Origin: a virus
Virus record (IMG/VR): IMGVR_UViG_3300048033_001096
Coordinates: 96,001-160,000 of that record
Strand: one strand, 5' to 3'
DNA length: 64,000 bases
Shown: positions 247 through 36,300 of the stretch, piece after piece
How positions within the stretch are numbered: position 1 is the stretch's first letter
How the letters are laid out: every line of letters begins with the position of its first letter
Notes under the pieces: model-generated
The model's input: only the letters and a program-made list of their open reading frames with translations
The model's database searches: none
What the model was told of the DNA's origin: nothing
Translations under genes and position numbers: made by a program

Positions 247-1566
247 ATGAAGATATCTGATATTTTTGTAGAAACAAAAAAACTTATTATTGAATCTGTA
301 TTTGAGGTTGAAGGTGGAAGTATATTAAGCACTGGTAACCGAGCTTTGGGATATAATGTAGTAGATACTCGTTTACGTCCTAGTGATCCTAGATATATAA
401 TTAACACTTTTGACACTGCAACAGCAGCCGCAAACTATAGTGACGAAATTAATTTAGAGTTACAAAGAAATTCAAGATTTGATCCTCGTACTGCTAGGAC
501 TACTCCTCCTGGAGCAATTGCAACTACTGGAACTAAACCTCCACTTGAATGGGAAGATCTTAACGATGACCGAGGCAGACTACCGAGGCAATATCGTCTA
601 GCACTTCAGAACCCTGGCTATATTACTCACGGAGGGCACAGATATACTCGCCAAGAAATAGATGCGTTTAGTCAACTAGCAACAACTCGTCGTGCGCAAA
701 TGATGAGAGATGTTGAAGCAACTAGACCAAAACTTCTTAACATGGATGCTGAAGATGCAAAAAATCCTCGCGCCTGGGCAAATCGAAATGTTACATTTTT
801 GAATACATTAGGAGCTAGATCTCTTGCTATGTTCTTTCCTTGGAACTTTCGTCCTGGATTGCAACTAGCAGCATACGTATCTCTTAAAGAAATGCTTATT
901 CGTATGTATAATACTGAAATTACTGATAACACAACTCCAGCTGAAGCTCGAGAAAAAATACAAAGAGTATTTGGAATGTGGTTTGTTCTGTTTGTTGCTC
1001 CGGGATTACTTGCAACTATGACTATGGGTACTCGAGCAGCAATTGCTATATTTAGAACTATGATTAGATCTATAAACCTTGCATCAATGACTACACAACA
1101 AATAGCTAGTTTTGTAGGCGGACTACCTGGAGCAACAGTGATGTTAATTAAAAACGTAATTCAGTTTTTATTAGTTGAAGCATTACTATATACTGTTGCA
1201 AGAGCAATTTTAATGAGGCCTGAAGTTCAAGTGTTATTATTAAACGCAATGGGCAATCATTACGCAAGTAAATTAGGCGAATGGGGATTTGAAGGAGCCG
1301 AAACATTAAACACTTTTGTAACAGCACAACTTAATGCAGAAATAATTCCTACTCTAAACGCTACGTTTAGTGAAGTCGAACTTGAGGAAGTACACGGAGA
1401 CGCTATGACAAATTTGAAACTAGATCCAAATGATGCGCCAGTAGGACAACCTGAAGTAGATGACGGTAATGGTGGAACAACTCCTGAGGCTCAGCCACAG
1501 CGACAAACGCCTGACGGTCAGCCCGATCCAGATGCTAGAAGGCCTCTTAACATTGACGATCTTTAA
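247..1566 (+). CDS. Hypothetical virion protein, possibly an internal/ejected head protein with hydrophobic helices
   Basis: 439-aa ORF; late box ATAAATA at 215-221; N-terminus MKISDIFVE resembles T4 capsid-targeting leaders; hydrophobic stretches such as VFGMWFVLFVAPGLLA. Confidence 0.6.
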   Translation: MKISDIFVETKKLIIESVFEVEGGSILSTGNRALGYNVVDTRLRPSDPRYIINTFDTATAAANYSDEINLELQRNSRFDPRTARTTPPGAIATTGTKPPLEWEDLNDDRGRLPRQYRLALQNPGYITHGGHRYTRQEIDAFSQLATTRRAQMMRDVEATRPKLLNMDAEDAKNPRAWANRNVTFLNTLGARSLAMFFPWNFRPGLQLAAYVSLKEMLIRMYNTEITDNTTPAEAREKIQRVFGMWFVLFVAPGLLATMTMGTRAAIAIFRTMIRSINLASMTTQQIASFVGGLPGATVMLIKNVIQFLLVEALLYTVARAILMRPEVQVLLLNAMGNHYASKLGEWGFEGAETLNTFVTAQLNAEIIPTLNATFSEVELEEVHGDAMTNLKLDPNDAPVGQPEVDDGNGGTTPEAQPQRQTPDGQPDPDARRPLNIDDL

Positions 1567-1796
1567 ACCATTGGCATTTTAGTGTTCTTACTAACTTCGA
1601 TGTTTTCTTGAATAATTTTTCCTAGTATTTGTAAATCTTCAACATCAGTGTCAGTAAGTAAATCTTTTGAATCTACTCCTCCTCGCATGTACCAAGAAAG
1701 TTTATAGATTTCGTGTTTAATTTGTTTGATTTCGTTTTCGTAATCGTTTGATAGATCCTGTATTTCAGAATCCGAGAGTGGGATTAGTATTTCAAG
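1563..1796 (-). CDS. gp51-like baseplate/tail assembly chaperone segment in the -1 frame of the upstream gene (absent from the ORF track)
   Basis: 77 open codons LEILIPLSDSEIQDLSNDYENEIKQIKHEIYKLSWYMRGGVDSKDLLTDTDVEDLQILGKIIQENIEVSKNTKMPMV*; fills the gap between neighbouring genes; no start codon/SD for its N-terminal half; preceded by slippery T TTT TTC. Confidence 0.7.
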   Translation of the reverse strand, partial: LEILIPLSDSEIQDLSNDYENEIKQIKHEIYKLSWYMRGGVDSKDLLTDTDVEDLQILGKIIQENIEVSKNTKMPMV

Positions 1797-2623
1797 AAAA
1801 AACTCGAAAAATCCAAATTAGCTTTAATTTTGTTAGTAGCTTGACATTCACTACAAACTACTTCTGTAATCGGCGGTTCGAGTGCAGCAGTGTTTTTTGC
1901 ATAAACTTTTTGTATTTCATTAAAGTATACACCGTCATTATTTAAAATAAAATCGTTTATAAATTCTGAATTATTTTCAATGTCTCCGTCAGGTGTTGTT
2001 ACATCAACAACTACTTGACAAATTATAGATTTTGTTTGAGTATTAATTTGTTCGTAAAGTACATCCATAGCCTTATCTTTATCATCTTGAGACATATCTT
2101 TATTTTGTGTAATTTGCATAAGCTCTCTGCGAACTTTCATAGACACTTGCTGATTTTGTATAATTTCTTTGTATGTCAAAGGTCTAAGTCTAAACACAAA
2201 GTCATCAACACTAACATCAAAAGATAATTTTGTTTTCATAAAATGATCTAAGATTGATTGTACAGGTAATCCGTAAGTATCATCGTGAGTACAACTTGTA
2301 CATTTTGTACTCATAGTTATATTTTCACCGTATGTGGCAAGACGTATTGCAGCCATAACATATTCAAAATCGACACTAGCTAGTTTCCATGCATTTTTAA
2401 TTGCTGGAACACAACTTTCGATAACTTTTACAGTTGCATTACCTGTAATTAATGCATCAGGTGTTTTTGCAAGTATTTCGTTACTAGCAGTCATACTATA
2501 GACTTCTAGTTCTTCAAACTTTTCGACTATGTTATCATTGTACCAAACACCTTTGCTGGGTAAATCGATATATAATTTTGGTTGCCGTTTATATTTTTGT
2601 AACGGACTTGTTAAGTTTTCCAT
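1784..2623 (-). CDS. Baseplate hub assembly protein, T4 gp26-like
   Basis: 279 aa; RQPKLYIDLPSKG N-terminal motif; two CxxC pairs (CTSC, CSEC); next to the tape-measure-like gene; late box at 2659-2666. Confidence 0.7.
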   Translation of the reverse strand: MENLTSPLQKYKRQPKLYIDLPSKGVWYNDNIVEKFEELEVYSMTASNEILAKTPDALITGNATVKVIESCVPAIKNAWKLASVDFEYVMAAIRLATYGENITMSTKCTSCTHDDTYGLPVQSILDHFMKTKLSFDVSVDDFVFRLRPLTYKEIIQNQQVSMKVRRELMQITQNKDMSQDDKDKAMDVLYEQINTQTKSIICQVVVDVTTPDGDIENNSEFINDFILNNDGVYFNEIQKVYAKNTAALEPPITEVVCSECQATNKIKANLDFSSFFLKY

Positions 2624-2692: not shown

Positions 2693-4906
2693 TTGGCTGG
2701 AACAGATCGCGAGAATAATACAGACTCAGTAAACCGAAATACCGAGTCCTTTAATCGCCTTAATGGTGCAATTAATGGTCTTGGTTCGATTCTTGGTAAT
2801 GTTATACAGGGTGCGCCCCAACGTCTTGCTCCGTTAATTGATACTAAAGTTATTCCTGGTCTTGAGCATTTGTCAAAAATGATGGCATTTGCTGAAGGAT
2901 ATGTTGGTGTATGGCAAGATCTTACACGCGGCGGCATCCATTTTAATAATCAGTTAGATGAAATGATTATTCAAGTTGGTAAAACTAACTTGACTATGGA
3001 ACAATTTACTAGAATAATTGGAGATAATCAAAGAGAAATAGCCGGAATGGGCGGTACTGCTCAACGAGGCGTTAATGCTTTTATTCAAGCGCAGCAGGCT
3101 TTCATGCAAGAAACTGCCGATGGGTTTAATCCAGCAAGAGTAGAACTTGAAAGATTAGGCTTTAATGCAGAAACACTTGGCGAAACTTTTGCATCTTTTG
3201 ATGCCTTGGCAACTATACAAGGTATTAGAGGGAGAATGGATGCAAATCAGCGTAATCAAGCTGCTGCTAATTATGCAAAGACGTTAGACGAATTAGCAAG
3301 ACTTACTGGCAAGCAAGTTGATGCATTAGCTGAAGAACAGGCTGAAATTTCAAGACAAGGTAATGTGTTTGCATTTGGACAAACATTGCAAGACCATGTC
3401 CGAGATGAATTAGATAACGGACTACTTGCTTTATCACAAGTATCGCCTACTGTAAGAGATTTTGCTATAGATGTGCTTACAAGAGGATTTCCAAACATGA
3501 ATGATCCTGAAATGCGAGCACTAAACGCAGCAGCTCCTGGACTAAGAGATGCACTAATGGAAGCTCGTCAGGCATTCCTTGCTGGCGACGAAGGTAGAGC
3601 AAAGATACTAATGGATAATGCATTAGCACAATCGACTCAATTACGAAACAATCAATTCTTAATTAATCAAGCAATGCTTGGTTCTGCAACTGATATATCA
3701 AACGGCGCTATGAATATTATGACCGAGTTGGGTAGCGGTATGGCGTTAAGTGGTGATGCAATTGCAGCCGAAGCCGAACGTGTTGCACGATTAAATGGAG
3801 ACGTTTATACAGGGTCAGCTGATCAAATTCGAGCAGGTATTAATTCGTTAGTACAAACTGAAAGAGAGAATCAGACTTCAGGAACAGGTTCTCAAGTAAT
3901 TTTAGATCAATATTTAGAAGGATTAAGAAAAGTTCAATCGGCAGCGATGAATGCACAAGAAGCTGTTGTGCGAGGAATATTTGTACAAGTTACTGCTGCC
4001 GCAGCAGAATTTATTAGTTACATAAACGGACAAGGTAATTTAGTACAAACCTTACTTGAAAATATTGAAGGACCAATAGGTGATTTTGCTAGAGCATGGA
4101 ACGAAACTTCAAGCCAAACATCAGCTTTGTTAAGTGCAGCAACATCATTAGAAAATAGATCTACACTAGTTGAAGCTCGACTAGCAGATCAGCCTTCTGA
4201 TGTTGTAGATCCAAACGACATAGCTACACTTGCTGATGCAAGGCAAAAACTAGCTGAGTTAATGACAGAAGTTTCTAGAAATCCAGGCAATGCTGATTTG
4301 CAAAACGAACTATCTATGCTGATGAATAATATAAACACAGCATTAGTAGCATCAGGAGTAAATCCTCAAGCAACTGGAACACAACCCCCATTGACTCCCG
4401 ACCAGGCGGCTGCGTTTGCTCGGGCGATGGATGCTATGCCTACTTTTTCATTAGGCACAATGGGCACTGCTGGTAGATTATTTGAAAACTTTGGAAGAGA
4501 ATCACTGGCTGCATTACACGGCCTTGAAGCAGTAACTACACCCGAACAAATGGCTGCTATTGTACAGCAATCGGCACTAGGCGGAATGAGAGCGCAAGCT
4601 GAAGCATTATTATCAAGTGGATTCACAAACAATACATCTCAGTTAGACGGAATGTTAAATACAGTAAGAAAAATTCCTTCAGAAATATCGCAAACAGTTG
4701 CTAACAATAACGAAGGTGAAGATATTAACGCATTAATAAACACAGCTATGTCAAATATGAGAGAAAATTTTGAAACTGCAATGACTAACACTTTAGTACC
4801 TAAATTAGAAGAACTAGTAGCAGTAAATACACAGTCAAATAACTATTCAGAAAAAATTAGACGTGGCATTGGAAATTTGTCAGGCGATATGCTAAGGAGC
4901 ACTTAA
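2693..4906 (+). CDS. Tape-measure/baseplate hub protein (gp29-like)
   Basis: 737 aa, TTG start after GGAG; Ala/Gln-rich helical composition; C-terminal FSLGT..FENFG..LHGLEAV motif typical of tape measures. Confidence 0.6.
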   Translation: MAGTDRENNTDSVNRNTESFNRLNGAINGLGSILGNVIQGAPQRLAPLIDTKVIPGLEHLSKMMAFAEGYVGVWQDLTRGGIHFNNQLDEMIIQVGKTNLTMEQFTRIIGDNQREIAGMGGTAQRGVNAFIQAQQAFMQETADGFNPARVELERLGFNAETLGETFASFDALATIQGIRGRMDANQRNQAAANYAKTLDELARLTGKQVDALAEEQAEISRQGNVFAFGQTLQDHVRDELDNGLLALSQVSPTVRDFAIDVLTRGFPNMNDPEMRALNAAAPGLRDALMEARQAFLAGDEGRAKILMDNALAQSTQLRNNQFLINQAMLGSATDISNGAMNIMTELGSGMALSGDAIAAEAERVARLNGDVYTGSADQIRAGINSLVQTERENQTSGTGSQVILDQYLEGLRKVQSAAMNAQEAVVRGIFVQVTAAAAEFISYINGQGNLVQTLLENIEGPIGDFARAWNETSSQTSALLSAATSLENRSTLVEARLADQPSDVVDPNDIATLADARQKLAELMTEVSRNPGNADLQNELSMLMNNINTALVASGVNPQATGTQPPLTPDQAAAFARAMDAMPTFSLGTMGTAGRLFENFGRESLAALHGLEAVTTPEQMAAIVQQSALGGMRAQAEALLSSGFTNNTSQLDGMLNTVRKIPSEISQTVANNNEGEDINALINTAMSNMRENFETAMTNTLVPKLEELVAVNTQSNNYSEKIRRGIGNLSGDMLRST

Positions 4907-4907
4907 A

Positions 4908-6665
4908 TTGAGTTGGAAAAAATATTTTACACCAGTGAGTTCTGAAAACTCAGTTAACGGAACATATGGTCCAATAAATGGATCTGCTGCCGGTGCTCGC
5001 CCAGGACCTGCTAGGTCAAACTATTCAAGTTACTTACCAGATGTTTATGTAGGTAGTCCAAACCGTGTTGAGCGTTACGGCCAATACAATACAATGGATC
5101 AAGATTCAGAAGTAAATGCTGCATTAGATATTCTTGCAGAATTTTGTACACAAAAGAATGACGAAAACGGCACAAACTTTAAATTTAATTTTTTTAAAAA
5201 AGCTACAAATACAGAAGTAACTATATTAGGTCAATACTTAAAGCAATGGTGCAAAACACAGAAGTTTGAAACACGAATGTTTCGTATTTTTAGAAATGTA
5301 TTCAAATACGGAGACGCAATTTTTGTAAGAGACCCAGAAACTAAAAAATTATATCATGTTGATCCTGCAAAACTTAAACGTATTATTGTAAACGAAAGTG
5401 AAGGCAAGCAACCTGAGCAATATATTATACAAGATTTTAATTTAAATTTTAGAGAAATGGTTGCAACTACTCCGTTTCAGACTACTGGAAATATTACTGG
5501 CGGCGGAAATCCTAATACTGGATATTTTACTGGCAGCGGCAGAGGAATGGTAGGACAACCAAATCAGGGTCTTAATGGATCAAGATTTAATGTTGAAGAA
5601 GGTGAAGTAGCAATCAATGCAGAACATGTTGTACACCTAAGTTTAAGTGAGGGATTAGATCAAAACTATCCATTTGGACAAAGTTTGTTAGAATCAATCT
5701 TTAAAGTATACAAACAAAAAGAATTACTTGAAGATGCTATTATCATCTATCGAGTACAACGAGCGCCAGAGCGCAGAGTATTCTACGTTGATGTGGGTAA
5801 CATGCCAAGTCACTTGGCTATGCAATTTGTAGAACGTGTTAAGACGGAAATACATCAAAGACGTATCCCATCGTCAACAGGTGGAGGCCAAAATGTTATA
5901 GACAGCTCTTACAATCCTCTGTCAATCAACGAAGACTACTTCTTTCCACAAACTGCTGAAGGTAGAGGATCAAAAGTTGAAACACTACCAGGCGGTACTA
6001 ACTTAGGTGAAATTGACGACTTAAGATACTTTACAAATAAACTTGTGCGTGGCTTACGTATTCCAAGTTCGTACCTACCAACTGGAGCAGATGATGGTGC
6101 TTCTTCATTCCAAGATGGACGAGTTGGTACTGCTTACATTCAAGAACTGAGATTTAATAACTACTGCGAAAGACTACAAGGATTAATTACAGAAGAATTT
6201 AATCAAGATTTTAAACGGTATTTGTTAGAAAATGGAGTAAATATTGACACAGCGATGTTTGATTTAGAATTTCAAGCACCTCAAAACTTTGCTGCTTATA
6301 GACAATCGGAACTAGACAACGCTCGTGTGCCAACATTTACACAAATGAGTGCTATTCCGTATATGTCAAATCGTTTTGCACTAAAACGTTTCTTAGGAAT
6401 GAGTGCAGAAGAAATTGCAGAAAACGAACGTATGTGGCGTGAAGAAAATGACGAAACTCTAGAACAGCCTGATACAGATAGTTCAGGTGAAATGAGAACA
6501 GCTGGAATTAGCAGTTCCGGAATTGGTGCAGATCTTGGAGGTATTGAAGATGTTGCAGACGACGGTCCTGCTCCAGAAGACGGAGGCGAAGGCGCACCTC
6601 CAGAAACAGCAACTGACGCAACCTTAGGTGCAACTCCTCCTCCGGCGAACGATCAGACAATATAA
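4908..6665 (+). CDS. Portal vertex protein (T4 gp20-like)
   Basis: LLEDAIIIYRVQRAPERRVFYVDVGNMP, EDYFFP and TLPGGTNLGEIDDLRYF are gp20 signatures; TTG start after AGGAG. Confidence 0.95.
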   Translation: MSWKKYFTPVSSENSVNGTYGPINGSAAGARPGPARSNYSSYLPDVYVGSPNRVERYGQYNTMDQDSEVNAALDILAEFCTQKNDENGTNFKFNFFKKATNTEVTILGQYLKQWCKTQKFETRMFRIFRNVFKYGDAIFVRDPETKKLYHVDPAKLKRIIVNESEGKQPEQYIIQDFNLNFREMVATTPFQTTGNITGGGNPNTGYFTGSGRGMVGQPNQGLNGSRFNVEEGEVAINAEHVVHLSLSEGLDQNYPFGQSLLESIFKVYKQKELLEDAIIIYRVQRAPERRVFYVDVGNMPSHLAMQFVERVKTEIHQRRIPSSTGGGQNVIDSSYNPLSINEDYFFPQTAEGRGSKVETLPGGTNLGEIDDLRYFTNKLVRGLRIPSSYLPTGADDGASSFQDGRVGTAYIQELRFNNYCERLQGLITEEFNQDFKRYLLENGVNIDTAMFDLEFQAPQNFAAYRQSELDNARVPTFTQMSAIPYMSNRFALKRFLGMSAEEIAENERMWREENDETLEQPDTDSSGEMRTAGISSSGIGADLGGIEDVADDGPAPEDGGEGAPPETATDATLGATPPPANDQTI

Positions 6666-6938: not shown

Positions 6939-7649
6939 ATGGCAAAATTAGATAAATCAAAGTATTCTAAAAAACAAATTCAAACATTATTAGCAGAACG
7001 TAGAAGACAAAAAGAATCTGTTAATATTATTCCTAAAAAAATAAACGAACATACAAACAAAAGCTATGCATTTGTTCTTGGAAACGGAACATCGCGAAAA
7101 GGTATAGATCCTGCATTTTTACAATCTATAGGAAAAGTATACGGTTGTAATGCACTTTATAGAGAGTTTGATCCTGACTACCTAATTGCTGTTGATGCAA
7201 AAATGATACTAGAACTAGATAGAAAAGATTATATTAGCAAGCATAGAAATGTATGGACAAATCCAAATAAAGCATATAAAAACATAATAGGTTTGAATTA
7301 TTTTAAACCTAGTAAAGGTTGGAGTAGTGGACCCACAGCATTACACCTAGCAAGTCAACATGAGAATAAAAATATTTTTATTTTAGGCTTTGACTATAAA
7401 GGTTTAGAAAACGGCAAACGTGTTAATAACATGTATGCTGGAACACCAAACTACAAAAAAACTACTGACTCTGCAACTTACTATGGAAATTGGCTTAAAC
7501 AAACACAACGAGTAATAAAAGAAAACGCACATATAAACTATTATAGAGTTATACAGCCAGAAAATTTCAAACCGCCGGAACTAAATAGTATTAGTAATTT
7601 ACGCACAATTACTATCATAGAATTCCAAAAAATGTTTGGAATTTCCTAG
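6939..7649 (+). CDS. DUF115/Maf/MptE-like fold protein, putative glycosyltransferase
   Basis: AFVLGNGTSR, YGCNALYR..PDYLIAVD, SSGPTALHLA and IFILGFDY motifs. Confidence 0.55.
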   Translation: MAKLDKSKYSKKQIQTLLAERRRQKESVNIIPKKINEHTNKSYAFVLGNGTSRKGIDPAFLQSIGKVYGCNALYREFDPDYLIAVDAKMILELDRKDYISKHRNVWTNPNKAYKNIIGLNYFKPSKGWSSGPTALHLASQHENKNIFILGFDYKGLENGKRVNNMYAGTPNYKKTTDSATYYGNWLKQTQRVIKENAHINYYRVIQPENFKPPELNSISNLRTITIIEFQKMFGIS

Positions 7650-25428: not shown

Positions 25429-28400
25429 ATGTCAGAATTTAAAATTAGTAGATTAAGATTTAGTTGGGTAGGCGAATGGAAAGACCAGTACGTTTACAAT
25501 AAAGACGAAATTGTACAGTTTGAAGGTAAAGCGTATGTATGTTTAATACCTCATACATCAAACGGGTTTTACGCAGATTTAAGTAATATTGAACCAAAGT
25601 GGGAGTTAATGATGACTGGCCAGACTTGGAAAGGTCCTTGGCAACAGTTTACAAATTACGCTTTAGACAATATTGTAATTTTTGGTGGTGTTGTTTACAA
25701 ATGTAACGAACAGCACCTAAGTGCAAGTATTATTGATCCAGACATTGACAAGTGGGACGTTTATGCGGAGTCTAAAACTTGGAAAAGCGAATGGACATCT
25801 AATACAACATACGGTCCTGGTGATATTGTAAACTATGGCGGCTCAGCTTACGAATGTATTATTGCTCATATATCTGCAGAAACAGATCTTTTAGGGTTAG
25901 AAGCTGACTATACTGATATTGACGATAGCACAGAAAGATATTGGAAACTATCAACATACGGAGTCCAGTACAGGGGCGATTATTCTACATTTTCTGAAGA
26001 CAGTACATATATTAGATATAAGTTAAATGATGTTGTAAAATACGGGCCTAGCTTATATAAATGTATATGGGGACATTCTCCAGGCATTGCAATTGAAGAT
26101 TTTTCGACTAATATGGAAATGGCCGATTCGTTTGTTCCAGAATATTGGGAAGAATGGCTACCTGGTTTAGACTTTGATAATGTATGGGATGTTGATACTT
26201 TCTATCAACCCGGTGATGTAGTACTATACGGTGGCTACTTATTCCAGAGTAAAATTATTAATAATCTTGGAAATAAACCTTCAACTACATACGGTGAAGA
26301 TTCAACAGATGCTTGGGAAATTATATCAGAAGCATATAGTATTGACGGCGACTGGATAGTCGATTCTGAATATAAAGTAGGTAGTGTTGTTAGATACGGA
26401 GGCGACTTATATGTTGCCCTTACTGACAGTATAGGTCAAAATCCAGGAAGTTTTGAAGTAACAATACCATACGAATCGGAAGGTTCGTCGGGTAATACTA
26501 TCATTCTAAATGCTGAAGACTCTGTTCCGCTCGATGCAATTACTGTAGGTATGACAGTTACTGGTGAAGGGTTTGCTAGAGGTCAACAAGTTGAAGTAGT
26601 TGAAGTTGATGCCGAAACAAAACTAATTACAGTTACATTAAACTATCCGCCCGACGGAGCAATTAACGACGAAGCAGTTCTTACTCTAGCAGGAACAAAT
26701 TATGCATTTTGGGAATTATTAATTCCAGGATTCCAGTATGAAGGAAGATGGAGTGAAGGGCGTACATATAATGCAGATGACGTTGCATATTTTGGAAATG
26801 CAACATATAAGTGTACTAGAGAACATACATCTGCTCTTGTAAATAGACCTGATTTAGATTTACAAAATAATTATTGGATTATTTATTTACAGCACGATCA
26901 AAGAAATAGTCTTACAACTCCTGGGCAAATGATTGTTTTTGATAAAGACGACGGCAACATACCTTTAGAAATCGGCGACGAAGCATCTATTTTAAAAGTT
27001 ATTAACGGACTGCCAACTTGGAGTGATATTGACTTTACACCAAATGTTTATTATGTTGCTACGAATGGTACTGATTTACCTGATAGAGGGACAACCCCCG
27101 ATACAGCATGGGCATCGATTAAGTATGCATGTGAAATTATTAAAGAAGGTACTTTACAACAGAATGCTAAAGAATTAATTCAAAAAAACAAAGAGTGGAT
27201 TGTGCAAGAAACATTTTATTGGTTCTTGTATCAGCAAAATCAAGGTATAGCACCATTTGGTGACTCTTTTAATTTTGATAATGAAAAAGTTATAAGAGAT
27301 TCTAGACAAATTGTAGATGCAGCAGTTAAAGATCTTACACGCGGCGGCAATGCACAAACTGTTGCAGCAGCATTATCCTACTTTGATTTAGAAAGTACAA
27401 ATAGATTTACAAATGATGAAATTGCAGCACAGGCTATATATTTTAAAATATTCTTTGTAAAACTATTTGAGCATATCGAATTTGCATTAACTAATACACC
27501 TTCAGGTACTAACTATCAACAGCTAGAAGGCGACAGACTTGGCGGCGATTTAAAACCCGGAATGATTCCATTTGCTACACAATACTTTAACACAAACTTA
27601 GTGTTGGATAGTAATACTTTAACAATAGTTAGAGCATTTGAAAGAATATATGTAGAATCGTTTACACTTGGATCACCAAATACAATTCCTCCAGCTAACG
27701 AATCAGCATACTCAACAATTAACATTAAAGCAGGTACTTATTTAGAAGAATTACCGATTGTTGTTCCTTGTAACTCAGCACTAAACGGTGACGAACTGCG
27801 TGGTACAACAGTACAGCCAGCTAATCCAGTTAACACATTATGTACAAAAACAACAGGCGATATAAATTTATTTACTGTTGGATCTACTGTTAATATGGAA
27901 CATAATACTCCAGTGCAGTTTGTTTCATTAAATCCAATAAACGAAATTAGTACCATTATTGGTGATGTAATTGCCGGACAGACATATTATGTAATTGGAG
28001 ATTCAATTACGCCCACAGCATTTGCAGTTAGTGAAGAACCAGACGGTGTACCGTTTGAAATTAGAACTAACATTGGCGGAATGTATGTGTACGGCGGCAA
28101 CGCACTAAGAGATATGTTCTATGTACAAAATGCTACAGGCATACGTAATATGACTGTTAAAGGACTACGAGGAACACTAACAGTAGAAAACGAATACTTA
28201 ACAAGACGCCCAACTGGCGGAGCATATGTTAGTTTAGATCCAGGCGAAGGACCGGATGACACAACAGCTTGGATTACTTATAAATCTCCATATATTCAAA
28301 ACGTAACAACATTTGGTAAAGGCTGTGTTGGCCTTAAAATTGATAGTGATTTACATAATGGCGGTAACACTTCAGTTACATCTAATGACTTTACGCAGAT

Positions 28401-31400
28401 TATATCTGACGGAATTGGTATTTGGGCTAAAGGCGGCGATGCATTAACAGAAGCAGTTTCGGTGTTCTCGTACTACAATTATGCAGGTTATTTTGCAGAA
28501 GATGGCGCAAAGATACGTGCAACAAATGGTAACAGTTCTTATGGTACTTTTGGTGTTATTGCTGAAGGATTTGATGTAAATGAAGTCCCGGCAGTCGGAG
28601 TTGTAAACAACAGAGATAACGAAGCTACAGCAGAAGCAGTATCAGCATTAGGCCAAAACTCGGAAATTTTAAAAATTCAATATACACATGCAGGTGAAGA
28701 ATATTACAACACTACAACAAATTTATTACGTTACTCTAACGATTTACTTGCTGATACGTTATGGCTTACTGATAGTAATTTGTCTATTACTAGAGCTGCA
28801 ACAACGCCGTACGAAAACGAAGTAGCTTGGAGAGTTGTTGCAAATACATCACTTACTGATTCTTCTTACTTTTATCAAACAAGAGAAATATCTCCACAAG
28901 GAAGAACATATACTAATGTATCAGGATTTAATATATCAGGTTCGGGTATTGAAGCTACATTTGATGTAACAGTTAACTCTGACGGATATGAAGTTTCAGT
29001 AAATAATGGCGGCAGCGGTTATGTTATTGGAAATCAAATACAATTAGACGGTAGAAGTTTTGGAGGAAGAAATCCAGAAAATGATATTATTATTACTGTT
29101 GAAGATCTAAGTATTACTTCGATATCGCAAATACAACATGAAGGAATAGTTCCAGAAGGAAGTGCTTTACCTTATAATGTAAGTATTCATGCTAAGAAAG
29201 GTGATACACCGTATTTTGATTTAGTTACTGAATTTTCAGGTGGCCCTACATCACAAACAAATTATGTAAGATATAATTTTGAAACTGATTTAGCTACTAC
29301 AACATTTAATGGTAATACATATCCGCCTACGAACATAAAAGCTGACTTTTTAGAAGACGGATGGTATAGAATTTCTTATACAGTATTTGACGAGTCAGCA
29401 TTAAACAATTTAATTACCTTTAAAATTTATCCAAGAGGTACAGATGGTATTGAAGGATTTACTAATTTTTATGGAGCTCAAATTACTATTGGTAGCGAAG
29501 ATAAATTCTTTGTTAACACTAAAGATGACACTTCTAGTGTATACGCAAATTTAAATATTTCAGGCGCAGGAACTGGTGTTGATGCTCGTGCAAACGAACT
29601 AAGAACAGGGTCAGTTTTTCAAGCAAGGCTTTTAGAAAGCGAACAGGTACGTTTAGGTGGATTAGGATATAATCTACAAACTAACAACGCACAAGCTGGT
29701 AATACTGAATATTTAACATTGGCACAGTCAGAAGTTGCAACAGCAGCTGAATACGAAGGTATGCGACTAGTTGTTAATTCTGGTAAAGGTGCAGGACAAT
29801 ACGGTATTATTTCAAACTATGACGAAACTACTAAGTTTGCGTACATTGTTAAAGAATCTTTTGATCAACAAGAACTTGTTGCTGTTAATCCTGTAGAAAA
29901 TTCATTAGTATTAGGATTAGATTCTGATTTTCATGGAGTTTATATAGGACAAAAAATTCAAGTTACTCCAACTTTCTACGATATTGGAGTGTCAAGTACT
30001 TCGCAAAGCGGTATTGATGTAACAGGAACACTAGGCGATTTAAATAATTATATGTTTGTATCTAGTACAGACAGATTGCGTGTAGGACAAAAAATTAATT
30101 TTAGTGGCGTTCCTTTCGGCGGAGTTATTATTGGATTTGACTATTATATTATTGACATCATTGACGAAAGATCAATACAGATTTCTACATCATTAGGTGG
30201 TGCAGTTTGGCCACTTACAAATGTCAATATTGAAGACCCAGATGATTCGCCAATTGTATTAACTGGAGAGGTTCCTTCGTTTACTTTAAATTATCCAGAC
30301 GACACTAGCTATCTTACAGCAGATACAACTGATAACATGCAAGTTACTTTGCCAATACAATTTACTGGTAAAGCTATTGGCGGAATTGAATTAGGTAGCG
30401 TTTATTACATTCAAGAAGTATTTAATGACACGCAGTTTTCAATATCTGAATTTATTTTAACAGAGGACGTAACAGCAACTAACGCAGCTAACAATACTTT
30501 AATTACTCTTGATACATCAGGGCTAAATCCGTTAACTCCGATTATATTTAAAGAAGGCAATGTTTTAGGTGGGCTACAAGAAAAAACAAAATACTATGTT
30601 AACTCAATTGTAAGTGGTACTGAATTTACATTAGCAAGTGATGTTATTACTAGAACTGCAACAGCATCAGAAGGAATTACTAACCTAATTACTGTTGATA
30701 GCACAGCAGGATTTATACCAAATTCTCCAATAACATTTACTGGAGTAACATTTGGACAAATTGATAATGACAAAGTATACTATATTCAGGTTGTTAACGA
30801 TGCAACTTCTTTTACAATCTCTGAAGCACCGGGCGGTGCAGCAGTTCCGTTAACAACAGCAGTTGGTGAAGTTTTTGTTAGGACTTCGTTAGATGAAGTT
30901 GTTATTAGCACTGATACCGGAACAATGGAATTCCAAACAACAGGTACTAAATTTGTGTTAGATTCTGGCAGAGATATAATGGAAGGATCGTTCTTTACTG
31001 AAATATTTGCCGGACTTGAAACTGGTGTAACTTATTATGTTGTTGATAAGTTTGATACAAATTCGTCAAAAGAAATTAAGATATCTGAAACAGAAGGTGG
31101 CGCAGCAATACTATTAACAGAAGAGTCGGGATCAATGCAAGTTAACGAAGTTGGTTGGGATCACATTAACGCAGGAACTCCGTTAGTTACGACTTTTGAT
31201 TCAACATCTGTTTATCAAATAGAACCAAGAATAACATTTGATGCACCGCCATTTTATACAGAACTAATGCCTACCGTATCATTTGGTAACGGTAATGGTT
31301 TCTGTACAATTGTTGACGATAACGATAGTCAAATTCTTGCAATACCTAATGACGGCGACACTGTGCTCGGAACAACTGATTTTACAGATTGGGACGTTAC

Positions 31401-33303
31401 ATACAGATTGCCATTTGACGGTAATGACGGTACAAATGGCGGATGGGTTGATGCTACCTACGGTAATAATACTTTCTTTATTATGTCAAAAGACGGTAGT
31501 GATTCTTTATATAGTAACTCAGCTGGGTTAACTTGGCTTTCGGTTGATATGCCTACATTGCCTGAGGCCGGCCCTGGAGAAAAACAAGGTATTTGGAAAT
31601 CAGTTGCATACGGTAATGGAAGATTTGTTGCTATTGCTAATAATGTAGAGAATAGTGCATATTCAACTAATAATTGTAATTCATGGACTGAAGTAACAGG
31701 TCCTATAGATATCGAAGGCGAAGAAGATTGGAGAGATATAGCATACGGTAACGAAATATTTGTAGCAATATCTGGATCAAGCGATACTGCAAAATATTCA
31801 ACAGATGGCGGAGAAACATGGAACGCTACTGAAATCACAGGAACATCAACTGTTGATAATTGGAGAGCTATTGAATTTGGCAACGGAAGATTTGTTGCAA
31901 TTTCAGAAGACGATCGTCCAGCAGTTTACAGCTTTGACGGCATTACATGGTATCCGTCAAATGTTGATGTATCTGGTAATATTTTAAAATATGCACAAGG
32001 AGTGTTTGTAGTTATTAATTCATCAACTGGATTATGTTGTACTTCTGCAGACGGATTTACTTGGAATTTACAAACTGATACAGTAGGCGGAGACTACGAT
32101 GTATGCGGATTTGGACTAGATCCAGATACGAAAAAAGGTTGGTTTATGACTATTAATGAAGTAGGTAATCAGGCATTTAAAATAAATGCAGGATGTAAAG
32201 CAATTGCTAGAGCAAGTGTTGCTAATGCAAGACTTACAAGTATTAGCTTACTAGAACCTGGTTCGGGATACGAAGATGATAGCTTTGTTCCTAATGTAAA
32301 AATTACAGATCCAAATAATTCCGAAGAAGCTCTAATACAAGTGCGTGTCGGTAATGGAACATTAGGTGCACCAAACTTTGTAAGTTTCGGTAGTGGGTTT
32401 AATACAACGTCTACAGCTATTTCTATTAGGGGTAATGGTTTTAGTGATTCGTTCCAAACAGGTCTAACATTGATTGCAAAAGAAATTACTAGATTCCCAA
32501 GTCCAGGTGACAACTTACAGTTTGAAGGCAATCCGGAAGTATATCGTGTTGCTAAAGCAGAAAGATTACGAGGTACCGAAATACCAAATCTTGAGACATT
32601 AATAACTTTAAGTCCACAGTTAACACAGGAAACAGCACCAAATCATAATACGCCATTTACTATTCGTAGTAGATTTAGTCAATGTCGTATTACAAATCAT
32701 GACTTCCTAAACATTGGATTTGGTAACGAAGTACAATCCAATTATCCATTCCTTCCTGAAGAGACAGGACTTGAGCCGCAAGACGAAATTCAAGAAACAA
32801 ACAACGGGCGTGTGTTCTACTCAAGTACAGACCAAGACGGTAACTTTAGAGTTGGTGACTTGTTTGCTGTAGAACAGGCAACAGGTGTCGTTACACTAAG
32901 TGCTTCAGAATTTGGACTAGAAGGTCTAACTGAATTAACAATTGGTGGTGTTGCACTTGGTGGCTCACCGGTTGTTGTTTCAGAATTTTCAACAGATGGT
33001 ACATTTGTTGCTAACTCAAATAATATTGTTCCAACACAGAGAGCAATTAGAACATATTTGGCAAGTAGATTGTCACAAGGTGGTTCAGATACATTTACAG
33101 GATTGCTACAAGCAGGTACTGTTAAAGTAGGTGGACCAGACGAAATTACATCATCGGTACCAGAAGGCGGCGAGGGCTGGCAAGTTAAGATTGGTACTAA
33201 GGCAATGGTAGACGGACCATTTGCAGGTTGGAGCGGAGACGGACTAGCAATGTCTTATTTTATGAAGACATTTACCGATCCTACACGCGGCGACTTACAA
33301 TAA
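25429..33303 (+). CDS. Giant virion/fibre protein B1
   Basis: 2624 aa; N-terminal W..Y..GD.V.YGG..Y (CBM5/12-like) repeats, beta-helix-like core, VAYGNGRFVA propeller repeats; late box 25394-25401. Confidence 0.75.
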   Translation: MSEFKISRLRFSWVGEWKDQYVYNKDEIVQFEGKAYVCLIPHTSNGFYADLSNIEPKWELMMTGQTWKGPWQQFTNYALDNIVIFGGVVYKCNEQHLSASIIDPDIDKWDVYAESKTWKSEWTSNTTYGPGDIVNYGGSAYECIIAHISAETDLLGLEADYTDIDDSTERYWKLSTYGVQYRGDYSTFSEDSTYIRYKLNDVVKYGPSLYKCIWGHSPGIAIEDFSTNMEMADSFVPEYWEEWLPGLDFDNVWDVDTFYQPGDVVLYGGYLFQSKIINNLGNKPSTTYGEDSTDAWEIISEAYSIDGDWIVDSEYKVGSVVRYGGDLYVALTDSIGQNPGSFEVTIPYESEGSSGNTIILNAEDSVPLDAITVGMTVTGEGFARGQQVEVVEVDAETKLITVTLNYPPDGAINDEAVLTLAGTNYAFWELLIPGFQYEGRWSEGRTYNADDVAYFGNATYKCTREHTSALVNRPDLDLQNNYWIIYLQHDQRNSLTTPGQMIVFDKDDGNIPLEIGDEASILKVINGLPTWSDIDFTPNVYYVATNGTDLPDRGTTPDTAWASIKYACEIIKEGTLQQNAKELIQKNKEWIVQETFYWFLYQQNQGIAPFGDSFNFDNEKVIRDSRQIVDAAVKDLTRGGNAQTVAAALSYFDLESTNRFTNDEIAAQAIYFKIFFVKLFEHIEFALTNTPSGTNYQQLEGDRLGGDLKPGMIPFATQYFNTNLVLDSNTLTIVRAFERIYVESFTLGSPNTIPPANESAYSTINIKAGTYLEELPIVVPCNSALNGDELRGTTVQPANPVNTLCTKTTGDINLFTVGSTVNMEHNTPVQFVSLNPINEISTIIGDVIAGQTYYVIGDSITPTAFAVSEEPDGVPFEIRTNIGGMYVYGGNALRDMFYVQNATGIRNMTVKGLRGTLTVENEYLTRRPTGGAYVSLDPGEGPDDTTAWITYKSPYIQNVTTFGKGCVGLKIDSDLHNGGNTSVTSNDFTQIISDGIGIWAKGGDALTEAVSVFSYYNYAGYFAEDGAKIRATNGNSSYGTFGVIAEGFDVNEVPAVGVVNNRDNEATAEAVSALGQNSEILKIQYTHAGEEYYNTTTNLLRYSNDLLADTLWLTDSNLSITRAATTPYENEVAWRVVANTSLTDSSYFYQTREISPQGRTYTNVSGFNISGSGIEATFDVTVNSDGYEVSVNNGGSGYVIGNQIQLDGRSFGGRNPENDIIITVEDLSITSISQIQHEGIVPEGSALPYNVSIHAKKGDTPYFDLVTEFSGGPTSQTNYVRYNFETDLATTTFNGNTYPPTNIKADFLEDGWYRISYTVFDESALNNLITFKIYPRGTDGIEGFTNFYGAQITIGSEDKFFVNTKDDTSSVYANLNISGAGTGVDARANELRTGSVFQARLLESEQVRLGGLGYNLQTNNAQAGNTEYLTLAQSEVATAAEYEGMRLVVNSGKGAGQYGIISNYDETTKFAYIVKESFDQQELVAVNPVENSLVLGLDSDFHGVYIGQKIQVTPTFYDIGVSSTSQSGIDVTGTLGDLNNYMFVSSTDRLRVGQKINFSGVPFGGVIIGFDYYIIDIIDERSIQISTSLGGAVWPLTNVNIEDPDDSPIVLTGEVPSFTLNYPDDTSYLTADTTDNMQVTLPIQFTGKAIGGIELGSVYYIQEVFNDTQFSISEFILTEDVTATNAANNTLITLDTSGLNPLTPIIFKEGNVLGGLQEKTKYYVNSIVSGTEFTLASDVITRTATASEGITNLITVDSTAGFIPNSPITFTGVTFGQIDNDKVYYIQVVNDATSFTISEAPGGAAVPLTTAVGEVFVRTSLDEVVISTDTGTMEFQTTGTKFVLDSGRDIMEGSFFTEIFAGLETGVTYYVVDKFDTNSSKEIKISETEGGAAILLTEESGSMQVNEVGWDHINAGTPLVTTFDSTSVYQIEPRITFDAPPFYTELMPTVSFGNGNGFCTIVDDNDSQILAIPNDGDTVLGTTDFTDWDVTYRLPFDGNDGTNGGWVDATYGNNTFFIMSKDGSDSLYSNSAGLTWLSVDMPTLPEAGPGEKQGIWKSVAYGNGRFVAIANNVENSAYSTNNCNSWTEVTGPIDIEGEEDWRDIAYGNEIFVAISGSSDTAKYSTDGGETWNATEITGTSTVDNWRAIEFGNGRFVAISEDDRPAVYSFDGITWYPSNVDVSGNILKYAQGVFVVINSSTGLCCTSADGFTWNLQTDTVGGDYDVCGFGLDPDTKKGWFMTINEVGNQAFKINAGCKAIARASVANARLTSISLLEPGSGYEDDSFVPNVKITDPNNSEEALIQVRVGNGTLGAPNFVSFGSGFNTTSTAISIRGNGFSDSFQTGLTLIAKEITRFPSPGDNLQFEGNPEVYRVAKAERLRGTEIPNLETLITLSPQLTQETAPNHNTPFTIRSRFSQCRITNHDFLNIGFGNEVQSNYPFLPEETGLEPQDEIQETNNGRVFYSSTDQDGNFRVGDLFAVEQATGVVTLSASEFGLEGLTELTIGGVALGGSPVVVSEFSTDGTFVANSNNIVPTQRAIRTYLASRLSQGGSDTFTGLLQAGTVKVGGPDEITSSVPEGGEGWQVKIGTKAMVDGPFAGWSGDGLAMSYFMKTFTDPTRGDLQ

Positions 33304-33336: not shown

Positions 33337-36300
33337 ATGGCAGAGTTTAAACTAGGTAGAATTAGATTTGTTTGGCAGGGCGACTGGAGTGCTGATCGAA
33401 CATATGTTGCAGACGATGTTGTAAGTTTTGGTGGTAAATCATACATTTGTATTAGAAACCATACATCAACAGCATCATTCCAAAATGATTTTGATAGTGA
33501 AATCAAGAAATGGGATATTGTTTCAGATGGTACAGCTTGGCAAGGTGATTGGGAACCAGAATTTAGTTATGCACCAGGTGACGTTGTGCGTTATGGTGCA
33601 ATTGTTTACATTGCAGAAACTGGGCATGTTTCTGCAACATTTGAATCACCTGACTTCTTAGGACTAGAAGCTGACTTAGACAAATGGACACCTTTTGCTA
33701 CATCCTTTGATTGGAAAAGCGATTGGGAAACCGCAACTAGATATAAAATTAACGACCTAGTACGTTATGGTGGATTTGTTTATCTGTGTAATACTGCTCA
33801 TGTTTCTGCCGCAACAGTAGCACTTGGATTAGAAAACGATCAAGGTAAATGGACTTTATTCAGTGACGGATTAGTATACTTAGGAGAATGGGTAACTGAA
33901 AATCGTTATCGTTTAAACGATGTTGTTAAGTACGGCGGCAACGTGTTTATCTGTACTACTCCGCACACATCAAATGACTTTATAAGTGATGAAGTAAACT
34001 GGGATGTATTTATTGAAGGCTTCCAGTTTGAAGATAGTTGGAATAATTCTACTGTTTATCAAATTGGTGATACTATTACATACGGTGGTTATGTATATGT
34101 TGCTAAGACTAACAATACAAACGCACAGCCAACAGCAAGTCCAGATGATTGGGAAGTGTTTACAACTGGATTTGCGTTTCAAGGTGATTGGAGTTCGTTA
34201 GATAGTTACAAAGTAGGCGATGTTGTACGTTTGGGAGGCAATACTTATGTAGGTATCGCCGACAGCTTAGATCAAGAACCGCCAAATGATACTTATTGGA
34301 GTAGATTAAACTCTGGCATCAATTGGACTAGAAGCGTCGAATCTTTCTCACAAGTAGCTGGTACAAATGCAGCAGGGCAGTCAGGTTCAGGAGCACGATT
34401 TGACGTTGTTAAATCAAATACAGTTTACACTGTAAGTGTTTCAACAGGCTTTACTGGTACAGGTTATGCCGAAAATGATGTTATTACATTGTCAGGCGCA
34501 GATGTAGGCGGAACAACTCCGGCTAACGATATTGTTGTAACTGTAACAGGAGTCACAGCCGGTGCAGTTGATTCAATTACTCATACTGGATTCTCGTCCT
34601 CTTGGATTGCTGGAAAAGATTACCATGTTGGTGATGTAGTTATATATGGAGCAAGTTCGTTTATTTGTGTAACTAAAAATACTTCAGAAACTGATAATAG
34701 ACCAGACAATGACACTGAAGCAGTTTACTGGAACATTTTAACAATTGGATCCGAAGCACTATCGCTTGAAGTATCTGGCGACATGGTTTACTACGGTAAT
34801 AATGGTCCAACTAGACTCCCAATCGGAGTTGACGGACAAATTTTACGTGCAACTGACGGATTTCCTGAATGGGCAAACTATGGCCTAATTGACAACGTTG
34901 TTTATGTTGGCCCACTAGGTACTGATATTCCTGCACCTGAATCAGGACTAACAATTGACAAACCTTTTGCTAGTGTACGTTATGCACTTGATCAAATTCG
35001 TAACGGATATCTAAATCCTAAGACACGAGATGTATTAAGAAATAATAAACAGTTTTTAATCAAAGAAGCATCTGAATGGGTAAAATATAATTATAATGTG
35101 CAGATTACTGCATCGGCAAGTGGCACACGTACATTTACTTGTAACAGTACAGAAAATTTACGTGACGGGATTCCGTTTGTGTTTAGTGGAGACGTATTTG
35201 GAGGAGTTACTGCTGGAACAACATATTACATCGATGCTATTATAAGCTCAACTGAATTTAGAATTAGTGACACTCAAGGTGGTATATCAATAATACTTAC
35301 AGACGACACTGGTACTATGGAAGGTAATGCATCTGTAAACTTTGACAATTTAGAAGCAGACTGTGCTAGAATTGTTGATGGTATAATTTATGATGTTTCA
35401 AGAGGCGGAACATTAAAGACTACTACTGCTACAAACTTATATTATGTGAATACATATACATTTAGTGTTGAAAGCAATAATTATGTTTCACAAGAAGTTC
35501 AAGAACAAAAAACAATTAACCAAGAAGTATATACAAAATTAAAAGATATTATTGACGATGTTGTAAATAATAGACACCCTGTTAATTATCAAGCTCTTAA
35601 TGATATTAGTGTAGAAGACAGAGCACAGCAAGTACTTGATCTTGATCTAGTTGCTGAAGACCGCGGCAAGGAAAAAGCCGGCGACCTTCTTGACATTGTT
35701 GTTAATGGTATTGTTGCAGGATCTAACACAGCAATTGCTTTACCTGTACTTCCAAATACTACAGTGTTTATCAAGACAGGTACTTATAACGAAGTATTGC
35801 CAATGATTCTTCCAGAATACACTGCGGTAGTTGGAGACGAACTACGTACAAGTGTTGTACAACCTCGACCTGCTATTGCAAAACTAGCAAACGACAAAAA
35901 TAAAACAACTAGTGCATTAAACAGAATTAAAGATCTTGCTCCTAAAGTAATACAAAATATTGAAGTAGAAAAAACAGCTGGAAACACTGCTATACAACAA
36001 TATGTTAACGGTTATGGCGGCACAACTACTACAACAAATAGATTAAACAATGGTATTGAAAAACTATCTGATATTTTAGAAAAAGGATTAACAGAAGTAG
36101 ACCTATTACCTAACGTAGGACCTGTTCCTACTAGTGGATCAAATAATGCAAGTGATAGTGGCTTTGCAAATGCTATTGCACAAATTGAAGCTAACGTTGA
36201 CTTTATTGTTGCAGAGCAAACTGCTTGGATCCAAGCACAAGTAGACGGCGAGATTGCACCTTTTGCATCAGACTTTACGTTTGATACTGCAAACTGTGAA

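Follow-up and report, generated by a model that had tools for sequence, protein, structure and literature searches.

A programmed -1 ribosomal frameshift probably operates in the single PF12322 (gp26/gp51-family) gene of a RaK2/PA5oct-like giant myovirus, and we give this reading a probability of about 0.85. The gene lies on a 64,000-nucleotide (nt) stretch of DNA from an uncultured marine giant phage (positions 96,001-160,000 of IMG/VR record IMGVR_UViG_3300048033_001096), referred to here as the window; the record itself is a 169-kb fragment of an uncultured virus, approximately 46% complete. Comparison with homologous sequences shows the slippery site, the second frame and the fusion of the two parts. 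The predicted outcome is a pair of proteins of two lengths from one gene, in a family that includes the T4 proteins gp26 and gp51.

Slippery Heptamer and Overlapping Reading Frames

The gene (1784..2623, minus strand; identified from the open reading frame (ORF) list, its translation, PF12322 and phrog_150) encodes in frame 0 a gp26-like baseplate-hub assembly protein of 279 amino acids (aa), the short product. Its 3' end reads AGT TTT TTC TTG AAA TAC TAA, with the frame-0 stop at 1786-1784, and direct reading places the slippery heptamer T TTT TTC at 1796..1802 on the same strand in X XXY YYZ phase, formed by the third base of the Ser274 codon and the codons of Phe275 and Phe276. The -1 frame (1563..1802, minus strand) is open for 79 codons counted from the heptamer, up to a TAA at 1565-1563, with its first ATG at codon 39; its translation supplies the 77-aa C-terminal extension of a longer form. 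Tandem slippage would join the two ORFs into one coding region (1563..2623, minus strand) for a predicted trans-frame product of 353 aa, with residues 1-276 from frame 0 and the rest from frame -1 (274 + 79 when counted from the heptamer). The predicted junction is ..DFSSFF|LEILIPLSDSEIQ.., i.e., ..DFSSFF|LEILIP... A first-pass annotation of the window, made from its sequence alone, had described the gene end and the heptamer at 1802-1796 exactly as we find them. Its 77 open codons down to 1563 are the same frame counted past the two Phe codons, the internal Met37 before which it saw no start is our codon 39, and its product lengths and junction peptide were all correct.

The -1 ORF occupies an otherwise empty gap of 217 nt ahead of a convergent gene at 247-1566; that annotation, too, had it filling the intergenic gap. 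The convergent gene encodes 439 aa on the plus strand, overlaps the end of the -1 ORF by 4 nt at their stops (1563-1566) and has no match in Pfam or PHROG. Long -1 frames of this kind are rare in the window: ORFs of at least 100 aa hold 98 in-frame X XXY YYZ heptamers, and a -1 ORF of at least 60 codons follows just two of them, this one and another in a shadow ORF that runs antisense to a real gene.

We propose that most ribosomes would read Ser-Phe-Phe-Leu-Lys-Tyr-stop and release the 279-aa protein. A fraction would slip back by one base on U UUU UUC, with one tRNA-Phe on UUU in the P site and another on UUC in the A site, each of which would re-pair on UUU after the slip. These ribosomes would then read 77 more codons in the -1 frame, yielding a protein of 353 aa with an added three-helix C-terminal domain.

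Conservation of the Heptamer Among Relatives

A tblastn search with the 279-aa protein returned 95 phage records, all giant myoviruses with 21-30% identity, of the RaK2, 121Q, PA5oct, GAP32, Serratia BF, XacN1 and Atu_ph07 kind; blastn of the locus against the phage collection gave no match. In IMG/VR, a single-sequence query retrieved no relatives, which were found with a denser alignment of hub proteins. Two IMG/VR sets were assembled, the first comprising 80 loci recovered by the hub-protein profile (34-68% identity) and the second 80 further loci recovered by an extension motif. Codons and starts were counted over 77 unique junctions, and information content was calculated over 86 unique ungapped junctions. 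Metagenomes contributed 848 homologues of the protein; the best 120 span 190-291 aa and nearly all measure 274-283 aa, so that these close relatives lack a one-frame form of 350 aa.

The first-pass annotation had suggested that homologous loci be aligned for a conserved heptamer, a -1 overlap and an absent start codon, and the alignments display all three. An in-frame heptamer is present in 8/8 cultured relatives (Atu_ph07, Phosso, PA5oct, RaK2, 121Q, Serratia BF, GAP32 and XacN1), in 80/80 loci of the hub-profile set and in 74/80 loci of the extension-motif set. In the cultured phages it lies 2-11 codons ahead of the frame-0 stop and opens a -1 ORF of 72-81 codons, counted from the heptamer; in the hub-profile set the -1 ORF has 79 codons in nearly all loci. 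XacN1 carries T TTT TTT and the other cultured relatives T TTT TTC, and among the unique junctions TTTTTTC occurs in 76 of 77 and TTTTTTT in one. The frame-0 tail past the heptamer varies from 1 to 14 codons across the hub-profile loci. In most relatives (L010-L089) the frame-0 stop falls exactly 3 codons past the heptamer, as in the window, and a minority have tails of 11-14 codons.

The residue ahead of the heptamer varies, its codon being AGT, GAT, AAT, CAT, TCT, CGT, GCT or GGT, and its wobble base is always T. All seven heptamer positions reach 2.0 bits and form the sole fully invariant run at the junction, compared with 0.7-1.0 bits at the first two bases of the preceding codon. T4 gp26 retains Phe-Phe near its C-terminus but encodes it within GAG TTC TTT, which is not slippery. 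Judged by these alignments, the heptamer is conserved at the nucleotide level beyond the demands of the encoded residues.

The -1 Frame as Coding Sequence

At the protein level, conservation of the extension sets in at its third codon (FFRxxL.., ..WYMRGG.., ..ENIE..), and between the window and its nearest relative it is 72% identical, compared with 68% for the hub domain. Conservation follows the pattern of coding sequence, in which codon position 2 exceeds position 1 and position 1 exceeds position 3. In the 30 nt ahead of the heptamer this periodicity is in frame 0 (0.68/1.21/0.54 bits), and in the first ten codons past the heptamer it is in frame -1 (0.60/0.98/0.30 bits). The earlier impression that the -1 ORF reads like a real protein is borne out by both its conservation and its periodicity.

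The 77 junctions share no conserved start codon for the -1 ORF. Its first ATG is codon 39 in 50 of them, as in the window, and the PA5oct -1 ORF contains no Met codon. In a few phages the -1 frame does have an ATG that overlaps the frame-0 stop (ATGA in Atu_ph07 and Phosso, TAATG in 121Q), and this arrangement is not conserved; an independent ATG, which had been named as a finding that would count against the frameshift, is seen in a minority of relatives and, being unconserved, leaves the frameshift reading supported. Gene callers place ragged small ORFs of 41, 58, 70-75 or 93 aa over the extension, and GenBank and RefSeq carry it as a short hypothetical protein or leave it unannotated. The latter is the case for PA5oct and RaK2, and the Atu_ph07 annotation covers just the final 41 codons.

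These starts bear on whether two separate proteins are made instead, with the -1 ORF translated alone by termination-reinitiation or coupling and the T run merely encoding Phe-Phe. Such an arrangement would suit the ATGs set over the frame-0 stop in Atu_ph07, Phosso and 121Q, the small ORFs that annotators and gene callers start at codons 5-12, 21 or 39, and the protein-level conservation of Phe-Phe even in T4 gp26. However, it leaves the -1 ORF of the window with no ATG before codon 39 and that of PA5oct with none, and it does not account for -1 conservation and periodicity that begin at the heptamer, upstream of both the candidate starts and the frame-0 stop. Nor does Phe-Phe require the invariant wobble T, since T4 encodes the same pair without a slippery run, and natural in-frame fusions (described below) join the two parts at exactly the same point. 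We therefore consider separate translation very unlikely as an explanation of the locus.

In-Frame Fusions and Gene Copy Number

Searching 1.8 billion representative proteins with the extension profile yielded 327 matches. Among the best 150, approximately 20 clusters are proteins of 319-351 aa that carry the domain at their very C-terminus, and PF12322 precedes it in 9/9 fused proteins tested. Their junction (..LDLDFSx-xFRxKL..) matches that expected of the frameshift product but has a single Phe, and its DNA lacks the slippery T run. Because of that single Phe and missing run, the in-frame fusions are, on sequence grounds, a separate and diverged lineage rather than indel errors. A simple fusion in frame through a sequencing indel had been put forward as a possible refutation of the frameshift; the fusions we find belong to this diverged lineage, each accompanied by a short paralogue, and on our reading they favor the frameshift.

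The fusions also bear on the idea that one 353-aa gene was split in the window, either by a sequencing error in the homopolymer or by a frameshift mutation of recent date. Homopolymers are error-prone and in-frame versions of 319-351 aa do exist in other phages, but those versions constitute the separate lineage just described, with one Phe, no T run and an extra short paralogue, and the same T6 split recurs in well over 100 independent assemblies and 8 finished cultured genomes at 20-70% protein identity. A sequencing error or pseudogene was rejected on this conservation of the split across independent assemblies, and we regard its likelihood as negligible.

Gene copy number follows the same division. 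Each of the IMG/VR records with an in-frame long form (5/5) has a second PF12322 gene directly adjacent on the same strand, and hmmsearch on these tandem pairs found one copy with the extension and the other without. By comparison, a single PF12322 gene is present in 10/10 frameshift-type records, namely four complete cultured genomes, five IMG/VR records (one of them a genome of 337 kb that has terminal repeats) and the record to which the window belongs. T4 has two PF12322 genes, encoding gp26 and gp51. Both the short and the long length appear to be needed, as far as gene content can indicate. A quick tree, in which the T4 pair sits on long branches, suggests that the two-gene state arose separately at least twice. 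Gene order differs among the tandem records: in L171-L175 (e.g., L172:322-2262, plus strand) the short gene comes first in three and the open frames overlap, and the order is reversed in G002 and G003, where the long gene leads.

RNA Downstream of the Slippery Site

Small hairpins past the site had been noted in the first-pass annotation, and both are present on the minus strand of the window: AATCC/GGATT (1785-1781 with 1773-1769), and GGATTCTG/CAGGATC (1754..1773), which appears in the minimum free energy fold 22 nt past the heptamer. Their existence stands, but a role as stimulators is doubtful. The 55 nt past the site fold at -9.7 kcal/mol, compared with -6.6 +/- 3.1 kcal/mol for other stretches of the same gene (rank 0.23), and RNAalifold found no consensus structure for the 77 or the 86 junctions or for the 12 closest relatives. 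We guess that frameshift efficiency is low and lambda-like, because the window offers no convincing stimulatory RNA structure. The lambda G/GT frameshift is not known to require a downstream stimulatory structure.

Across the 77 junctions the RNA past the site is more stable, with a mean of -12.5 kcal/mol over 55 nt compared with -6.6 kcal/mol in control windows (mean z -2.0; 56% of junctions in the lowest 5%). A sister clade (23 of the 86 junctions) has a stem of 8-9 bp, GGCUAnnn/nnnUAGCC, that starts 6 nt past the heptamer and encloses a loop of approximately 23 nt. Compensatory changes occur at four of its pairs, and sliding the partner columns by 1-3 abolishes the full stem in every junction. 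The stem occupies columns 14-22 and 46-54, counting from the heptamer, and occurs in L015, L017-L019, L021, L023-L029, L031, L033, L036, L038, L039, L042, L045-L048 and L053. Its 6-nt spacing is that expected of a ribosomal stimulator. The window and its nearest relatives lack this stem, and the downstream structures are lineage-specific.

The stem is also relevant to transcriptional slippage, in which RNA polymerase would add an extra U on the T6 run and so fuse the frames, giving the same products. Here the comparative evidence for a fused product fits both mechanisms, and the homopolymer itself, six Ts in 76 of the 77 unique junctions and seven in XacN1, could in principle let the polymerase slip as well. 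Yet the codons frame the run precisely as X XXY YYZ, and the covarying stem of the sister clade lies at the distance of a ribosomal stimulator. Productive slippage by bacterial RNA polymerase usually needs runs of approximately 8-9 or more, and six bases fall short of this. Slippage during transcription is consequently improbable in our estimation, and ribosomal frameshifting remains the preferred explanation.

Protein Family and Predicted Structure

The gp26-like identity proposed for the gene holds. Residues 48-276 match positions 34-218 of the 219-position PF12322 (T4_baseplate) profile with 44.2 bits (cut-off 24.5), and the PHROG match of the 279-aa protein is phrog_150, baseplate hub. The hub domain contains two CxxC motifs, whose cysteines (C108, C111, C257 and C260) are invariant. 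A Pfam scan of the short form and the extension returned PF12322 only, with no tail-assembly-chaperone family.

AlphaFold2 models are confident for both parts. The short form has a mean predicted local distance difference test (pLDDT) score of 87.9, falling below 50 only at the frame-0 tail (residues 275-279), and the extension scores 89.9 and is predicted to be a small helical domain with helices at 11-38, 45-50 and 54-74. Neither the hub-domain nor the extension model had a Foldseek match in the PDB at E <= 0.001, VIA-align returned only generic helical hairpins for both (Z approximately 8 or less), PDB sequence searches were empty for the hub family and the extension, and a BFVD fold search found only small uncharacterized phage proteins. 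The extension profile (residues ~11-33) weakly matches a helix within the hub domain of L172 and L173.

The -1 ORF had been called gp51-like, a label that does not hold for the extension alone. T4 gp51 is, by its domain content, a gp26 paralogue with a 48-aa tail, because its residues 1-201 cover the whole PF12322 model; it follows that the whole long product, and not the -1 ORF by itself, matches gp51 in architecture. Comparisons of the extension with gp51 by BLASTP and by the first two hhalign runs, using narrow and full-length profiles, were not significant and pointed to the middle of gp51. This weak placement (residues 121-173 in BLAST and hhalign) and the weak match to a hub-domain helix could reflect an internal repeat or helix-to-helix noise. 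With a wider extension profile (168 sequences) aligned by hhalign to the last 75 residues of approximately 90 gp51 homologues, the match reached P 3.9e-5 and a probability of 70% over 37 columns, a weak alignment of the second half of the extension that ends at the gp51 C-terminus. In precomputed annotation, gp51 homologues carry PF12322 and a second family, PF28602.

Neighboring Genes

Divergent from the hub gene lies a 737-aa tape-measure-like gene (2693..4906, plus strand), which by its context is a candidate client of the putative chaperone pair. Its listed start is TTG, and 69 nt separate it from the start of the hub gene. A divergent ORF of at least 350 aa is kept in 74/80 relatives, in 61 of which it matches the 737-aa protein. 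The RaK2 homologue is annotated as similar to tape measure, and ESM Atlas look-alikes come mostly from tape-measure clusters (score 0.93, low feature share); Pfam, PDB sequences and phage tblastn gave no match. The protein is rich in Ala, Gly, Asn and Leu and contains only 1.5% Lys. In the PA5oct RefSeq record, the homologue of the 737-aa protein bears a note of electrospray ionization tandem mass spectrometry (ESI-MS/MS) detection in virions and the hub-like protein bears none, a hint that the latter is not a virion component.

A T4-type portal gene (PF07230) directly follows the tape-measure-like gene, and close to the head genes there is a sialyltransferase-like ORF (phrog_4603, E 5e-5); these two are at 4908-6665 and 6939-7649. 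The structural region also holds two giant plus-strand ORFs, 25429-33303 and 33337-44583 (2624 and 3748 aa).

Interpretation and Significance

By analogy with lambda gpG/gpGT, the two forms may act as assembly chaperones of the baseplate hub or the tape measure, present at a fixed ratio. We infer from the same kind of analogy that they correspond to T4 gp26 (short) and gp51 (long), and the extension would then be the part that contacts a second partner. A wider proposal is that the gp26-type frameshift gene supplies, for the T4 superfamily as a whole, the G/GT counterpart that had seemed to be missing. In this proposal, the two forms would coat the tape-measure or hub protein, the extension would recruit the next partner, and the frameshift would be ancestral, later duplicated into gp26 and gp51 in several lineages including T4. 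We offer it tentatively, as an attractive possibility that we would not quite back at even odds.

Besides the homopolymer discussed above, several points weigh against our interpretation. The overlapping ATGs in Atu_ph07, Phosso and 121Q could mean that the small ORF is also made separately there by coupling. Given the unremarkable RNA downstream of the site in the window, efficiency could be very low. The contrast in copy number is drawn from related, non-independent genomes. The neighbor's tape-measure-like label stands on weak grounds, and the link between the extension and the gp51 tail is modest at the sequence level, and we stop short of firmly calling the two homologous. Sequence and fold searches with the hub domain gave no match to gpG-type chaperones, and a chaperone function is suggested by analogy.

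Full-text literature searches that combined frameshifting with gp26, gp51, baseplate hub, jumbo phages or PF12322 turned up no earlier description, and the PA5oct omics paper does not mention a frameshift. The tail-chaperone frameshift itself is known; the distinguishing feature here is the G/GT logic in an unrelated protein family. The tail-chaperone frameshift is among the most widespread viral recoding events, and reviews single out T4 as the exception (PMC5009743). In the giant phages related to T4, one gene of an unrelated family would provide two lengths, and lineages without the slip carry two genes, as T4 does. If the reading of a G/GT equivalent across the T4 superfamily is true, the "except T4" exception would be removed and a mechanism assigned to gp26 and gp51. 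More immediately, the locus provides a testable model for the T4 pair, in which a short chaperone and a long one would have to be present in the right ratio. It likewise allows the annotation to be put right in RaK2-, 121Q-, PA5oct- and Atu_ph07-like phages, in which the extension has been missed, truncated or listed as a separate hypothetical protein. Finally, U UUU UUC, accompanied in some clades by a covarying stem, would join the natural bacterial frameshift signals.

Comparison With Known Systems

The closest mechanistic parallel is lambda gpG/gpGT, where a small assembly gene beside the tape-measure gene has, close to its 3' end, a heptamer at which a -1 slip occurs, as we propose here. 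Lambda makes the short form in abundance and a form extended at its C-terminus more rarely, and we propose the same division here by analogy. A conserved -1 frameshift in tail assembly chaperone genes was reportedly described by Xu, Hendrix and Duda in 2004, and P2 E/E+E' is reported to use a T-run heptamer. The protein in the window is nevertheless unrelated to gpG, being a 279-aa member of PF12322 with two CxxC motifs. Its gene is divergent from the tape-measure-like gene, whereas the lambda-type gene lies between the tube and tape-measure genes on the same strand. The first-pass annotation had called the locus a G/GT analogue. The description is apt for a short/long pair made by a -1 slip beside a tape-measure-like gene, but it does not extend to membership of the gpG chaperone family; the likeness is one of logic, not of descent. 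A 2016 recoding review states that the G-T frameshift is conserved among long-tailed phages "except T4" (PMC5009743).

T4 itself offers the nearest likeness in protein family and gene neighborhood. Both gp26 (208 aa) and gp51 (249 aa) belong to the same Pfam family as the window protein, with PF12322 spanning all of gp26 and residues 1-201 of gp51, so that T4 has a short member and a long one ending in a C-terminal tail, as predicted for the window. The two T4 proteins are listed as hub assembly chaperones, are essential to hub assembly and have no known mode of action; gp51 does not occur in the phage particle and is described as essential but of unknown function (Leiman et al., 2010; PMC3004832). 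On the T4 map, gene 25 comes next after gene 26. Gene 51 is divergent from 26 and is the first gene of the operon 51-27-28-29, whose gp29 is the tape measure. In both phages, these genes lie beside a hub/tape-measure cluster, with gene 26 divergent from it. T4 differs in using two separate, divergent paralogous genes without a slippery run. The gp51 tail (48 aa) is shorter than the extension (77 aa) and only weakly similar to it, and identity between the hub domains of the window and T4 is 10-15%.

The tandem PF12322 paralogues of uncultured phages (G001-G005 behind L091-L096; P0239-P0347) are the third comparable system. They have the same hub and extension domains as the window, joined at the same junction, and these phages also hold a short form without the extension, as here. 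They differ in that the long form is encoded in one frame, with a single Phe and no slippery run, and the short form is a separate neighboring gene.

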